Positions 1 to 9,000 of a stretch of DNA of 64,000 nucleotides are shown in pieces; the first letter of the stretch is position 1, and each line of letters starts with the position of its first letter. The stretch is taken from assembly GCF_044324785.1 (NCBI RefSeq), contig NZ_CP172127.1. One strand, 5' to 3'. The DNA is from Escherichia coli. GTDB lineage: Bacteria > Pseudomonadota > Gammaproteobacteria > Enterobacterales > Enterobacteriaceae. Made by a program: the position numbers.

Positions 1-3000
1 GCGCGAAGGCGAGGGGCGTAACCAGCCAGAGAAGGACAGGTGCGACAGACAACAAACGACGCATCAGGATCTCCCGCTACGCTTAAGCAAGTTTTTCATG
101 ACCGACTGAAAATCGGTCTGCGGTATCTCTTCCGTTGGTGCTGAAGGGGGAAGTTTATGCAGCAGATTGATTTGCCCTGCGGTAACGCCGAGCACCAGCC
201 GTGCATCTTCCACATCGACCACCACAACCCGTTCACGCGCGCCCAGCGAAGCACTGGCGCTAATTTTCAGACCGTTAACGCCAGTTCGTTTAGGGGCAAA
301 TCCCAGCCGTTTTACCAGCCAGGCAGCAGCGAGGATCAGGGCAATAATGGCGATGAGTGCGCCGCTCACCTGCAGCAGTGGCGCAGCAGAAATCGGCGCG
401 GAAGATTGCACAGTAGCGTGGTTATTCATCACTAACGGCTCAGGCGACGCATTCGCTCAGACGGAGTAATGATATCGGTGATCCGCACGCCATATTTATC
501 GGCAACGACCACCACTTCGCCCTGGGCGATTAAATAACCGTTGATCAGAATATCCAGCGGTTCGCCCGCCAGACCGTCCAGCGCCACGACGGACCCTTGC
601 GTCAGACGCAACAGCTCTTTGATGGTCATCCGCGTACGGCCCAGCTCGACGGTCAGCTTGACCGGAATATCCATAATCAGGTCGATATCCTGCAACGTTC
701 CGCTGACATCTCCGCCGCCAAATTGCTGGAACACTGCGTCGGCAGCGCTTTTGCCGCTGGTTGATTTTTGTTCGCTCAACGCTTCAGCCCACAGATCGTC
801 CATTGCGCCGTTGTTGTCATCGGCCGGATTATTCATGTCACTCATTTGGGCTGTTCCTCGTTCAGAGAATTTAAAATCGGGTTAATCAAATGTTCTATCC
901 GTAACGCATATTGACCGTTGAGTGTGCCGTACTGACTGGTCAGCACCGGGACGCCGTCAACATGGGCGATGATGCGGTCGGGTTTTTCTATCGGCAGGAC
1001 GTCGCCGGGTTTCAGTTTTAAAATCTGCGACAGGCGTAGCGAGATATCGGCAAAGTTGGCGACCAGCTCCAGCTGTGAATGCTGCACCTGGCGCACCAGG
1101 TTATCGCGCCAGTTCTGATCTTCATTACGCGAGTTTTCCAGCGGCGGGTTAACCAACAATTCCCGTAGCGGCTCGATCATGCTGAATGGCAGGCAGATAT
1201 TAAATTCGCCGGTCAGGTTGCCAATCTCCACATGGAACGGTGTGTTAACCACGATGTCGTTCGGCGAGGTGGTGATATTGGTAAATTTCACCTGCATTTC
1301 CGAACGCACGTACTCAACTTCCAGCGGATTAATCGCCTTCCAGGCGTCGCTATAGCCTTCAAGCGCCAGCTTTAACATGCGGTTGATGACGCGCTGTTCT
1401 GTATGGGTAAACTCGCGACCTTCCACTTTGGTCGGGAAGCGTCCATCGCCGCCAAACAGGTTATCCACAGCGATAAACACCAGACTCGGTGAGAACACCA
1501 CCAGCCCTGTGCCGCGCAGCGGTTTCAGATGGATAAGGTTCAGGTTGGTCGGCACCGGCAGGTTGCGGGCAAATTCATGGTACGGCTGAATGCGGATGGC
1601 CCCGACGGTTATATCCGGGCTACGGCGCAGCAGGTTGAACAGCCCCATACGAAAATGGCGGGCAAAGCGCTCATTAATGATTTCCAGCGCCTGCAAACGT
1701 TCGCGCACAACCCGTCGTTGGGTATTCGGATCGTACGGACGAATGTCACTTTCGCCGCTAACACTGGCTGTCGGTTCGTCTTTGACTTCGCTGTCACCAT
1801 TCAACAGCGCATCAATTTCAGCTTGAGAAAGAATACTATCGCCCATGTCGTTATCGCAGAATAAAAGCGGTATACAGCACGTCGGTGACATCCTGTTTCG
1901 GTTGCCCGGCAACAAGCGGGGTGGAAAGTGTGGTTTTAATCTCGGCAATCAGGTTTTTCTTGCCTTCTTCTGTCGCCAGTACGGCAGCATCCTGACGCGA
2001 AAACAGTAACAGCAAACGGCTACGGACTTCCGGCAAATACTCACTCAGCCGCGAGCGGGTAGCTTCATCTTTCAGGCGCAGGGTTATGCCGATATAAAGC
2101 ACGCGATCCGCATCGCCCAGATTGACTGTAAAGGTATCCAGCGCATAGAAGACCGGGGAGGGCACGACGCGTTGCTGCGCTTTGTCTTCAGCGGCAACCT
2201 GATGCGAATGCCAGTAGCTGTAACCTGCGCTGGCACAGGCCGCGAGGGTAATGAATACCAGAATCGGGATCCAAAGCGATCGCTTGCTTTTCTTGCTTAT
2301 CGCGTAATCAGTCATGTGTTGCGGTCTTCCTGTGTCGCTACTGCTTATCGGCTAATTATCCTGCGTCTTGAGCGCAACAAAGCGGGGAAAAGACGCGGAT
2401 TACGGTGCTACCTCTGACGTTAGGCGAAAATATCAACGCCGCTGTTGCCTGTTACACGCCCTTGTAAAGATACGGGAACCGGAAGCGTATCGTTGTCTTC
2501 CCCCGCCAGAGTTTCATGGTTTGCTGTGCGTTGGCTTTGCTGTTGCTGGGAAGCGGCCTGCTGCTGACCACTAAAGCTTTCGCCACTGATGTTGCTTTGC
2601 CCTAACTGAATGCCACTTTCGGCCAGCTGCGTACGCAGTACCGGAAGCGCTGCTTCCAGGGCGGCGCGTACGTGCTGATGCGGTGAAACCATCTGGATTT
2701 GCGCCTGGTTATCATCCACTTTGAGGGAGATTTGCACCTCACCTAAATCCTGCGGGTGCAGACGCAACTCTGCACTTTGTTGCCCCTGGCGGGTGAACAG
2801 CGAAATATGCTGGCTTAATGATTGTTGCCATTCGTGAGAACCCAGCGGTGCACTCAAAACAGGCGCGGCGACGGTGGGCAGTGGCTGTGTCTGGTGTGGA
2901 GTGATTAGCGGGCTGGCGGCAGCGGTCACCGGCGAAGGCGTGCTGATGATTTCCGCTTTACTCTGGGCTTCTGCTATCAGCGGTGTTAATGGCTGAGCTG

Positions 3001-6000: not shown

Positions 6001-9000
6001 AACTCCGCCTGTGGTGGCGCGAGATCGTCCGGTGTCCAGGTTTTCCACGGCAGATTATCAGACATAGGTATCCTCGCCGCTGCCAATTACCATCTCGCCA
6101 GTTTCGGCAAGGCGGCGCACAATCAGCAGAATCGCTTTCTGTTCGTTTTCCACCTGCGACAGACGCACCGGACCACGGTTGGCGAGATCGTCGCGCAGAA
6201 TATCGGCGGCACGTTGCGACATATTGCGCAGGAATTTCTCGCGCAGTGGCTGCTCGGCCCCTTTCAGCGCGATCAACAGCGATTCGGAATCCACTTCCTG
6301 CAACAGACGCTGAATGCTGCGATCGTCGACATCCACCAGATTCTCGAACAGGAACATCTCGTCGATGATTTTCTGCGCCAGCTCGCCGTCGAATTCACGC
6401 ACGGCGGTAATAACGGCTTCTTCCTGCTGAGTTTTCATCAGGTTGATAATTTCGGCTGCCGTTCTCACGCCGCCCATTTTGCTGCGCTTGAGATTCTGAC
6501 CGTCGAGTAAGCCATTCAGTACTTCGGTCAGCTCCGCCAGCGCGGCAGGCTGCACGCCGCCAAAAGTGGCGATACGCAACATCACGTCGTGGCGCAGACG
6601 TTCATCGAACAACGCCAGAATATCGGCGGCCTGCGCACGCTTCAGATGCACCAGAATGGTGGCGATAATTTGTGGATGCTCATCGCGAATCAGATCGGCG
6701 GCGCTCTGCGGCTCCATAAAGTTGAGCGTTTCAATACCGCTGGCGGTATCGCGGGTTTCGAGAATATCTTCCAGCAGGCTGGCGGCACGTTCTTCACCCA
6801 GAGCTTTGACCAATACTGAACGCAGATAATCGTTGGCGTTGATATTCAGTGCGGCAAACTGTTCAGCTTCTTGCTCAAACTCCGCCAGCACATCGGTTAG
6901 CTGCTTGTTGGAGATCTGCGTGACGTTCGCCATTGCAGCGCTCAGAGTTTGCACTTCGCGCTGGGAAAGGTGTTTGAACACCTCTGCCGCCCGGTCTTCG
7001 CCAATGGTCATCAGCAGGATGACGCTTTTATCGGTGCCTGTCAGGTTACTCATGATCGTTATTTATCCACTGGCGAATGACCAGCGCCACCACGCGCGGA
7101 TCGTTATCAGACATTTCACGGATACGCTGGCTCATGACTTCTGCCCCCAGACGTTGGTTAGCGCGCCGTTGTTGGAGTTGTTCGTCTTTGCTCAGGCGGA
7201 CTTCCACCGCATCTTCCACTTCCTCGCGGGCCTGCGCCTGTTGCTGCACAGCTTTCATCGCCTCAGCGCGACGTGTTAGCTGCGGGCGTACCGCTTTCCG
7301 CCAGAGCAGCCACGCCACCAGCAGTACCAGCAACCAGCGACCGGCAGCAAGTAACTGATCGATAAACGCTTGCTGTTGCCAGAACGGCAGTTCTCCGCCG
7401 CTTTCGTCACTGCTATTGAACGGCGAGTTAACAACATTGAGCGAATCACCGCGTTTTTCAGAAAAGCCCATCGCCTCGCGGGTCAGATCTTCAATTTGCT
7501 TCATCTGTTCGTTGCTGAGAGGCAACGGTTTGCCATCTGGCAAGGTTTTGTAATTCACCACGACCGCGACGGACAGACGTTGCACATCGCCCACGTTCAT
7601 TTTGGTATGACGAATGGTGCGATCGACTTCGTAGTTACTGGTTTCATTCCGCTGTGTGCTACGCGGCCCACTATTGCTGGTGGTGCTCGCCTGCTGCTGG
7701 CGGTTATTTTGATTTGCCGGAGGCGTGCTGATTGGCGCGTTATTCGCAGGAGCCGGTTGATTCGACAACGCCCCCGGTACGCCGCCCGGATAACCGGAAC
7801 CGCTTTGCTCGCTCTCATTAAGCTGGCGTGAACGAAGCGCCGCATGAGATTCATCACCGTTAGGGCGATACTGTTCTTCCGTTTGTTCTTTACTGGCGAA
7901 GTCCAGTTGCGCCGTGACCTGGGCGTGAATATTACCGTTACCAACAATAGGCGACAGGATCGCTTCAATACGCCGCTGAATACGGCCTTCGACATCGCTG
8001 GCATATTTCAACTGAGCGTCATTAAGATCGCGCCCGCTGGTATTGGACTGGGTTAACAGATGTCCGCCCTGATCCACCAGCGTGACGTTCCCCGGCGGCA
8101 GACCAGCAACCGCGCTGGAAACCAGATGTACAATGGCGCTAATTTGCCCTTCATCGAGTGCGCGGCCGGGTAACAGATTTACCGTCACCGATGCAGAAGG
8201 TGATTTTTGTTCACGGACGAATAAAGAGGGTTTCGGCATTGCCAGATGTACGCGCGCCCCTTTTACCGGGCCGATAGTTTCGATGGTACGAGAAAGCTCG
8301 CCTTCCAGCGCCCGCTGATAATTCACCTGTTCGCTGAACTGGCTGATACCAAACTTTTCCTGATCAAGCAGTTCGAAACCGACCGCGCCGCCTTTGGGCA
8401 AACCTTGTTGTGCCAGGCGCAGACGCAGTTCGTGAACTTTATCTGCCGGAACTTCAATAGCGCCGCTGGCTTCGCTGAAGCGGTAAGGAATATTCATTTG
8501 TGTCAGTTGGCTGACAATTGCGCCACCATCCTGATCGGAAAGATTGCTGAATAATGTGCGGTAGTCGGGGGCTTTCGCCCACAGGATCAGTGCGACCATG
8601 ACCGCCACTGCCGCGGAACCGGCAACAATCAATGGAATTTTCGGATTCGCACGCAGGCGATTAAGCCACTCAAGAGATTTTGTCTGGGCTGCAGTCGCAT
8701 TCATCGCGCACCTCGTGGCTGATTATGGACGGCGTTATTGGCAAAGTGGAACAAGACTCACTCCCGGGTCAGCAAACTCGAAAAATTGACGCTCCCATTA
8801 TTTGTGCTTTCGTTTTTTTCTATCCGCCAATAAACCCGTTTTTTTGTTGCTATTTAGCGCCTTTGTCTTATTGACTTACTGGTAGGCTTTGCTACCAGAA
8901 ATTATCCGGGAGATGAAAATGTCAGCGATACAGGGGATTGAAGGGGTTATCAGCCAGTTACAGACCACGGCGATGAGTGCGCGTGCGCAGGAATCACTGC

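Follow-up and report, generated by a model that had tools for sequence, protein, structure and literature searches.

Gene overlaps in the flagellar region

The window analyzed, a 64,000-nt stretch of an Escherichia coli chromosome (NZ_CP172127.1), runs collinear to an E. coli chromosome between fliP' and torZ'. Annotation was transferred from an E. coli genome, and all of the 60-plus coding sequences placed in this way are intact. The sequence is ordinary for E. coli, and an unusual source was rejected: even the divergent fliD-fliC segment is matched across 80% or more of its length by 112 E. coli genomes, the best of them at 99.7-99.8% identity. The genes concerned belong to the established operons fliFGHIJK, fliLMNOPQR, motABcheAW, flhBAE, fliDST, otsBA and uvrYC, and shared transcripts are assumed for them; no space exists between two overlapping genes for a terminator and a promoter.

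Fifteen of the 51 same-strand gene pairs in the window overlap (Table 1). Thirteen of these junctions have exactly the short-overlap motifs (ATGA/GTGA, TAATG/TGATG, ATGnnTRA), while the remaining two overlaps are longer, 14 and 26 nt. All 13 overlaps listed in a previous sequence-only reading of the window, including the long one of otsB/otsA, were recovered with the transferred annotation; fliS/fliT (1 nt) and yecU/yecF (14 nt) had been missed. The fliO/fliP junction (position 64) falls outside the span 432-8704 to which it had been assigned. The attribution of overlaps to the chemotaxis operons is correct for motA/motB only, since no overlap was found at the che/tar/tap pairs in the window, which are separated by gaps of +2 to +45. 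The coding sequences and their annotated starts are genuine: the sequences are intact, the start positions and N-termini of the fli genes are conserved in 80 species, and for the non-fli pairs identical E. coli K-12 distances are listed in Table S2 of Huber 2023 (PMC10666635).

Table 1. Coding sequences and overlapping junctions in the window.
Feature	Coordinates	Strand	Overlap and shared sequence	Remarks
fliO stop / fliP start	62..66, overlap at 64	-	1 nt, TGATG	SD-like GGGAG, -7.4 kcal/mol
fliN CDS (137 aa)	432..845	-		start overlaps fliM stop
fliM/fliN junction	842-845	-	4 nt, ATGA	SD GAGGA, -5.9 kcal/mol
fliM CDS (334 aa)	842..1846	-		4 nt past fliL stop, non-overlapping
fliK CDS	2420..3547	-		start overlaps fliJ stop
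fliJ/fliK junction	3544-3547	-	4 nt, ATGA	
fliH stop / fliI start	5377..5381, overlap at 5379	-	1 nt, TAATG	SD AGGAG, -7.0 kcal/mol
fliG stop / fliH start	6058..6065	-	8 nt, ATGtcTGA	
fliF stop / fliG start	7046..7053	-	8 nt, ATGagTAA	weak SD, -3.1 kcal/mol
yedE stop / yedF start	12433..12436	-	4 nt, ATGA	SD AAGGAG, -9.1 kcal/mol
fliS stop / fliT start	16200..16204, overlap at 16202	-	1 nt, TGATG	
tcyL stop / tcyN start	23928..23931	+	4 nt, ATGA	
yecU stop / yecF start	25911..25924	-	14 nt	K-12 list also -14
uvrY stop / uvrC start	27036..27039	+	4 nt, GTGA	products functionally unrelated
otsA start to otsB stop	40116..40141	+	26 nt	K-12 list also -26
motA stop / motB start	44698..44701	+	4 nt, ATGA	SD GAGGA
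flhB stop / flhA start	55903..55910	+	8 nt, ATGagTAA	weak SD, -3.0 kcal/mol
flhA stop / flhE start	57979..57983	+	1 nt, TGATG	

Published counts were used as genome-wide baselines. In E. coli, the three most frequent spacings are overlaps of 4, 1 and 8 nt, and genes overlap in more than 30% of operon pairs. Distances from -8 to +6 were found at 18 of the 51 same-strand pairs, compared with 24% genome-wide (binomial p = 0.04), so that the window as a whole barely exceeds the baseline. The junctions of the flagellar and chemotaxis operons overlap in 10 of 23 cases (p = 0.12 against the baseline of more than 30%). Clear enrichment is confined to the flagellar structural and export genes, with 10 of 14 junctions overlapping (p = 0.002 for this subset, chosen post hoc).

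The GTG starts reported earlier for fliA, uvrC, otsB, motA, cheA and flhB, and the TTG start of uvrY, were all confirmed; GTG is likewise the start codon of tyrP and argS. Enrichment of such starts was rejected: they account for 9 of 69 genes (13%), while about 17% is expected genome-wide (p = 0.5). Most of these genes have no close upstream neighbor on the same strand, and uvrC is the only one that forms the downstream member of an overlap. Their placement and ordinary frequency count against a fixing of subunit stoichiometry.

Initiation sites and mRNA structure at overlapped starts

At 12 of the 15 overlapped starts the anti-Shine-Dalgarno duplex energy is -4.4 kcal/mol or stronger, with the Shine-Dalgarno (SD) motif located inside the upstream coding sequence; fliG, flhA and fliT fall below this strength. 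Overlapped starts have a median duplex energy of -6.3 kcal/mol, compared with -6.2 kcal/mol for operon-leading and long-gap genes and -2.3 kcal/mol for random positions. Opening the ribosome-binding site takes a median of 9.5 kcal/mol for overlapped starts and 8.9 kcal/mol for leading genes, compared with 12.6 kcal/mol inside coding sequence. Dependence on upstream ribosomes would be expected to be accompanied by weaker SD motifs and more occluded ribosome-binding sites; neither was observed in comparison with leading genes (Mann-Whitney p = 0.75 and p = 0.50, respectively).

Coupling could also arise if the upstream gene carried near its 3' end a stem-loop that hides the downstream SD motif and start and is opened only by upstream translation, the overlap itself being incidental. 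The gene pairs sctS/sctT and rplK/rplA represent this class of coupling by structure melting. On established knowledge, we take the products of sctS and sctT to be the injectisome counterparts of the FliQ/FliR export gate, whose genes lie outside the window, although the preprint describing sctS/sctT makes no mention of fliQ. In the Salmonella injectisome, where the order of the two genes is strictly conserved, an SD-occluding stem-loop couples them and restricts the downstream subunit in a complex of unequal 4:1 stoichiometry, and altering the stop-start distance left the expression ratio unchanged (bioRxiv 10.64898/2026.02.19.706803). Melting is also the mechanism preferred genome-wide in E. 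coli by Saito 2020, and high opening energies are predicted at fliI (15.7 kcal/mol), fliG (13.7), tcyN (12.3) and motB (12.0). However, taken as a group, the overlapped starts match those of leading genes in accessibility. Unlike at sctS/sctT, no conserved helix over the SD motif or start was detected by RNAalifold at fliH/fliI and fliF/fliG among 32-33 species, and covariation terms were close to zero, in highly conserved coding alignments that give this search low power. Structure melting appears a rather unlikely basis of coupling here.

Conservation of junction geometry among Enterobacteriaceae

The geometry of the fli junctions was compared across 80 Enterobacteriaceae species, the number available varying with the junction. 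The overlaps are almost invariant, while flanking sequences and the identity of stop codons turn over and spacers of at least 8 nt change in length. The 1-nt overlap of fliO/fliP is retained in 69 of 70 species, the 4-nt overlap of fliM/fliN in 71 of 73, and the 1-nt overlap of fliH/fliI in all 80, in the last case across 57 different junction sequences, with TGA and TAA replacing one another. The 8-nt overlap of fliG/fliH, a pair with a published median distance of -8 across 659 genomes, is present in 79 of 80 species, the lone exception being an aberrant call based on a truncated FliG match. For fliJ/fliK the 4-nt overlap was seen in 64 of 78 species; most exceptions, not individually inspected, were taken as mis-called starts in the poorly conserved N-terminus of FliK. 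Genes fliF and fliG overlap in all 80 species, by 8 nt in 56, by 4 nt in 15 and by 11 nt in 9.

Some of these observations would be consistent with the overlaps being neutral by-products, formed when an upstream stop was lost and translation read on to the next out-of-frame stop, with no harm and no role in expression. The context of start codons (ATGA, TGATG) readily offers such a stop, and across genera the stop of fliF has shifted between the 4-, 8- and 11-nt overlap sites. The median FliF/FliG distance across phyla is +2 (Huber 2023, PMC10666635), hence the overlap is not required. Overlaps are also found in the unrelated pair uvrY/uvrC and the poorly characterized yecU/yecF. Moreover, the non-overlapping +4 junction of fliL/fliM is equally invariant (75 of 75 species), and purifying selection on both protein termini can produce conserved geometry by itself. 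On the other hand, in none of the 80 species has the overlap been lost at fliF/fliG or fliH/fliI, and at fliG/fliH only the one aberrant call departs from it, despite the turnover of stop codons and flanking sequence. The SD motifs are retained within upstream coding sequence, and most native overlaps are functionally coupled in reporter experiments, with coupling observed in 13 of 14 pairs, including four of five from E. coli (Huber 2019, PMC6728339). A neutral origin is unlikely.

Translational coupling and subunit ratios

The overlaps described here share with those of Huber 2019 and 2023 the motifs (ATGA, TRATG, ATGnnTRA), organism group, gene pairs and distances, the location of the SD motif within the upstream gene and the proposed tie to heteromeric complexes. 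Huber 2023 (PMC10666635) found a steep fall of coupling with distance and proposed that overlap leads to coupling and coupling to stoichiometry; with these exact junctions tabulated and the same idea published there, the observation is already known. The pairs tested in those studies (hyfHI, astDB, ydbH/ynbE, menDH, bioBF), however, include no flagellar pair, and the subunit ratios required in the present flagellar pairs are strongly unequal. A literature search covering fliG, motB, flhA and fliN revealed no direct coupling experiment on any of the overlapped flagellar pairs.

Work on coupling in E. coli goes back to 1980, according to papers cited by Løvdok et al. 2009 (PMC2716512), who measured it directly at the locus analyzed here, in the motA-motB-cheA-cheW and tar-tap-cheRBYZ operons. 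For cheR/B, cheB/Y, cheY/Z and cheA/W the measured coupling was partial, at 0.2-0.6, and was interpreted as making protein ratios more robust, the proposed benefit being less noise and not the setting of ratios. These are the only pairs of the window with experimentally demonstrated coupling, yet they do not overlap, being spaced by +2, +14, +10 and +20 nt, respectively. How coupling works in E. coli is a matter of dispute: depletion of ribosome recycling factor (RRF) left the ratios of upstream to downstream ribosome density unchanged, even for overlapping pairs.

The overlaps exist, are conserved, keep an SD motif (12 of 15) and, as a group, have accessible ribosome-binding sites inside the upstream coding sequence. 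Most probably, they represent ordinary enterobacterial operon architecture that couples the translation of neighbors, while protein ratios are not set by the overlap. The genes, presumably co-transcribed, adjoin so tightly that the downstream start and the upstream stop share bases. Judging by published work with other gene pairs from E. coli, a ribosome that completes the upstream gene may boost downstream initiation by re-initiating in place, by holding the site unfolded, or both, while free ribosomes could additionally initiate de novo at the downstream start. The net effect would be correlated, less noisy output of neighboring proteins, and nascent partners may end up side by side. Absolute ratios would depend on how strong the initiation site of each individual gene is and not on the overlap.

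Of the earlier proposal that widespread coupling fixes subunit stoichiometry, the coupling itself is plausible in view of published reporter tests and the conservation of overlaps, while its stoichiometric part does not hold as stated. Strict termination-reinitiation would supply the downstream protein in fixed proportion to the upstream one and so set the stoichiometry of flagellar complexes. The frequency of overlaps at structural and export junctions would fit this mechanism, as would the 1:1 ratio of FliF to FliG together with the weak SD motif of fliG. But a single complex of fixed ratio is formed by some pairs only, FliF:FliG among them, and not throughout the set. The overlapped partners FliM1:FliN3, FliH12:FliI6 (2:1), MotA5:MotB2 and FlhB1:FlhA9 are required in unequal ratios. 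Re-initiation alone cannot yield more than one downstream protein for each upstream protein made, so that downstream excess is impossible by this route and unequal ratios argue against overlap setting stoichiometry.

Label-free proteome values are assumed here to carry an approximately twofold protein-specific error. In the absolute proteome data of Mori et al. 2021, which give steady-state levels estimated label-free in another strain, with FlhB, FliJ, FliQ, FliR and FliT undetected, the downstream/upstream molar ratios of overlapped fli pairs range from 0.16 to 2.9. The normal SD motifs of most overlapped starts and the accessibility of these starts as a group permit independent initiation, and the insensitivity of the homologous sctS/sctT pair to stop-start distance likewise argues against a ratio fixed by overlap. 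To our knowledge, the products of uvrY/uvrC, otsB/otsA, fliJ/fliK, fliS/fliT and flhA/flhE do not share complexes. The pairs uvrY/uvrC, otsB/otsA and flhA/flhE are marked "CMPLX not" in the table of Huber 2023 (PMC10666635). Unequal ratios, non-partner pairs and the spread of abundances together indicate that overlap by itself cannot set protein ratios, and strict ratio control by re-initiation is quite improbable.

It is very doubtful that the 8-nt, nearly SD-less junctions fliF/fliG and flhB/flhA (both ATGAGTAA) are sites of obligate back-stepping re-initiation; if they were, FliG, and likewise FlhA, would be made only by a ribosome that had just released the membrane-embedded partner, and co-translational assembly in cis where the MS ring or export gate is forming would give the overlap a spatial rather than a stoichiometric role.

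Overall, the finding has little significance beyond confirmation, start-stop overlaps, coupling and their link to protein complexes having long been studied. The present analysis adds that, at this locus, overlaps cluster in the structural and export genes rather than in the chemotaxis genes, for which coupling has been measured, that they are nearly invariant across 80 enterobacterial species, and that the stoichiometries of the partners preclude the overlap alone from setting ratios.

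Gene overlaps and start codons

Every overlap named in the sequence-only reading is reproduced in the junction table: 1 nt at fliO/fliP, fliH/fliI and flhA/flhE; 4 nt at fliM/fliN, fliJ/fliK, yedE/yedF, tcyL/tcyN, uvrY/uvrC and motA/motB; 8 nt at fliG/fliH, fliF/fliG and flhB/flhA; and 26 nt at otsB/otsA. Two further overlaps, fliS/fliT (1 nt) and yecU/yecF (14 nt), were not on its list. The extension of the pattern to the chemotaxis operons holds for motA/motB, but the other seven junctions, motB through cheZ, are all free of overlap (gaps of +4, +20, +45, +18, +2, +14 and +10 nt). 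The seven GTG or TTG starts that it listed are all correct, and tyrP and argS also start with GTG. These starts are unconnected with coupling; an excess of non-ATG starts was considered and rejected (9 of 69 starts are non-ATG, 13%, whereas GTG and TTG usually account for 14% and 3%). The ATG nested in frame within cheA is the internal start codon known to give rise to short CheA. Owing to this ATG, motB/cheA is listed at +295 nt in Huber 2023 (PMC10666635), compared with +4 nt from the RefSeq GTG start.

The overlaps are an ordinary feature and have already been catalogued. Supplementary Table S2 of Huber 2023 lists the same pairs in K-12 at identical distances (negative values denote overlap): fliF/G -8, fliG/H -8, fliH/I -1, fliM/N -4, fliN/O +2, fliO/P -1, motA/B -4, flhB/A -8, flhA/E -1, otsB/A -26, uvrY/C -4 and yecU/F -14. 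The cross-phylum medians are -8 for FliG→FliH (quartiles -10.1 to +13, 659 genomes), -3.4 for FliM→FliN (-8 to +19, 487 genomes), +2 for FliF→FliG, -1 for OtsB→OtsA (-13 to +34, 115 genomes) and +1 for NarL-family regulator→UvrC (-4 to +26, 136 genomes). The hypothesis that overlap leads to coupling and hence to precise stoichiometry was also put forward there.

Transfer of the RefSeq annotation of NZ_CP086678.1 by blastn placed over 60 coding sequences, every one of which has an intact reading frame; fliS, fliD and fliC were positioned via ORFs because this segment carries a different flagellin allele. Throughout its 64 kb, from fliP' to torZ', the window keeps the order of the E. coli chromosome. 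Since the best identity of the fliN-fliF region is only 98.9%, the source strain or lineage is absent from the 5,426-genome collection. The fliD-fliC divergence is an ordinary recombinational exchange of the flagellar (H) antigen allele, and the ORF at 9584-10387 may be an intact version of a gene decayed elsewhere. Insertion sequences between uspC and flhD increase flhDC expression and motility.

Coordinates of features in the window
Position	Strand	Feature	Observation
432-8704	minus	fliN, fliM, fliL, fliK, fliJ, fliI, fliH, fliG, fliF	Matched by 5,191 of 5,426 complete E. coli RefSeq genomes; top identity 98.9% over 8.3 kb
3988-4005		fliI/fliJ spacer	18 nt; 21 nt in two other E. coli genomes and most relatives (loci L004-L083)
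7024-7053		First fliG codons after Met-Ser-Asn, immediately 3' of the fliF/fliG overlap	Length varies by 0-12 nt among genera (A2, alignment of relatives); ATGAGTAA core conserved
9584-10387	plus	Intact 267-aa ORF	C-terminal half leucine-rich-repeat-like in appearance; reference genome has a frameshifted 'DUF5503 domain-containing protein' pseudogene beside an integrase remnant
16627-19787		fliD-fliC	Sharp divergence from the otherwise best-matching genome (fliC ends 73-79% identical, fliD without blastn hit); matches over at least 80% of length in 112 of 5,426 E. coli genomes, top identity 99.7-99.8%
41975-42756		uspC-flhD intergenic region	No insertion sequence; IS5 present in reference strain EFF60
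45920-45922		cheA codon 98	In-frame ATG preceded by AAGGA
48262-51570		tar, tap	Tandem paralogues; signalling-domain regions cross-match at ~73% DNA identity

Conservation of the junctions in Enterobacteriaceae

A FliG-based scan provided 80 loci from 80 Enterobacteriaceae genomes (FliG identity 91-100%). E. coli proteins were placed on each locus by tblastn; the reading frame gave the stop, and the start codon closest to the aligned N-terminus was used as the junction start. The distance is kept at fliG/fliH (-8) in 79 of 80 species, at fliH/fliI (-1) in 80 of 80, at fliM/fliN (-4) in 71 of 73, at fliO/fliP (-1) in 69 of 70 and at fliJ/fliK (-4) in 64 of 78, while fliF/fliG overlaps in every species (-8 in 56, -4 in 15, -11 in 9). 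The fliJ/fliK exceptions are probably start mis-calls at the FliK N-terminus, which is poorly conserved. Longer spacers vary in length (fliP/fliQ, 8-14 nt; fliI/fliJ, 12-24 nt across genera), and the fliI/fliJ variation contrasts with the invariant overlaps.

The junction sequences themselves are diverse, with 57 distinct forms at fliH/fliI, 50 at fliF/fliG and interchange of TGA and TAA. Despite this turnover, the overlap and a Shine-Dalgarno (SD)-like GGAG/GAGGA motif are retained, a pattern compatible with selection on the arrangement. It would also be expected from constraint on both protein ends, since the +4 gap of fliL/fliM is just as invariant (75 of 75 species).

Overlap frequency and subunit ratios

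The commonest spacing in E. coli is the 4-nt overlap, followed by 1 and 8 nt, and the range from -8 to +6 nt takes in 707 of 2,987 same-strand pairs (24%; Huber 2023). In the window, 18 of 51 same-strand pairs fall within this range (binomial p = 0.04) and 15 of 51 overlap. Overlaps occur at 10 of 23 flagellar and chemotaxis operon junctions (p = 0.12 against 30%); a post hoc split assigns them to 10 of 14 structural/export junctions (p = 0.002 against the 30% baseline) versus 0 of 7 chemotaxis junctions (Fisher p = 0.004). Overall, the window is typical, and overlaps are truly enriched only in the assembly genes, in agreement with the 4.5-fold enrichment in short distances published for genes of heteromeric complexes (Huber 2023).

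The required ratios, the overlapped non-partners and the protein abundances speak against the proposal that overlap fixes subunit stoichiometry. The assemblies comprise FliM1:FliN3, MotA5:MotB2, FlhB1 and FlhA9 alongside FliP5Q4R1, and FliH as six dimers together with six FliI and a single FliJ (review PMC11673145). A re-initiating ribosome cannot make more than one copy of the downstream protein for each upstream one, so FliN can outnumber FliM, or FlhA outnumber FlhB, only with additional de novo initiation. The products of fliJ/fliK and fliS/fliT are not known to be partners, yet these genes overlap. The overlapped uvrY/uvrC, otsB/otsA and flhA/flhE are likewise non-partners ('CMPLX not' in Huber 2023). 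According to the absolute proteome measurements of Mori 2021, for 15 samples with good expression, the downstream/upstream molar ratios are 1.55 for FliG/FliF, 0.16 for FliH/FliG, 2.9 for FliI/FliH, 1.5 for FliN/FliM, 0.47 for FliP/FliO and 0.68 for FlhE/FlhA. Although these are rough steady-state values from another strain, their 18-fold spread argues against overlap as the ratio-setter. Most ratios have an across-condition CV of 5-11%, with the exception of FliP/FliO (0.74), and that of the non-overlapping fliL/fliM is just as constant (CV 0.11).

Initiation sites and translational coupling

Pairing with the 16S anti-SD has a median energy of -6.3 kcal/mol at overlapped starts, -6.0 at short-gap starts, -6.2 at leading genes (operon-first or after a long gap) and -2.3 at random positions; the only weak SDs among overlapped starts are those of fliG (-3.1), flhA (-3.0) and fliT (-4.0 kcal/mol), whereas fliI, fliN and motB have strong ones. 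The median opening energy of positions -18 to +12 is 9.5 kcal/mol for overlapped and 8.9 for leading starts, versus 12.6 in internal coding sequence. RNAalifold runs on fliH/fliI and fliF/fliG (32-33 species, conserved coding alignments of little power) detected neither covariation nor a conserved helix covering the SD or start. On these models, the overlapped starts bear no signs of dependence on upstream ribosomes and look like competent stand-alone initiation sites inside the upstream gene.

Coupling at this locus has been measured for cheR/B, cheB/Y, cheY/Z and cheA/W, with strengths of 0.2-0.6 and a benefit in robustness to uncorrelated expression noise (Løvdok 2009, PMC2716512); none of these pairs overlaps in the window. 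Of 14 native pairs with an overlap, 13 showed coupling, the SD contribution differing pair by pair (Huber 2019, PMC6728339), and re-initiation was cut by 40-80% at an intergenic distance of +14 nt and nearly abolished at +38 nt (Huber 2023). By contrast, upstream/downstream ribosome-density ratios stayed the same on depletion of ribosome recycling factor, including at overlapping pairs (Saito 2020). This favours de novo initiation helped by melting of mRNA structure. The injectisome counterparts of fliQ/fliR are sctS/sctT. This pair is coupled via an SD-occluding stem-loop; altering the stop-start distance left the expression ratio unchanged, and GTG or TTG starts reduced sctT translation (bioRxiv 10.64898/2026.02.19.706803).

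The sequence-only observation is thus confirmed with minor omissions, and its interpretation is partly supported. By analogy with the pairs studied elsewhere, coupling at the overlapped pairs of the window is likely; its most plausible effect is correlated synthesis from neighbouring genes, not fixed subunit ratios.
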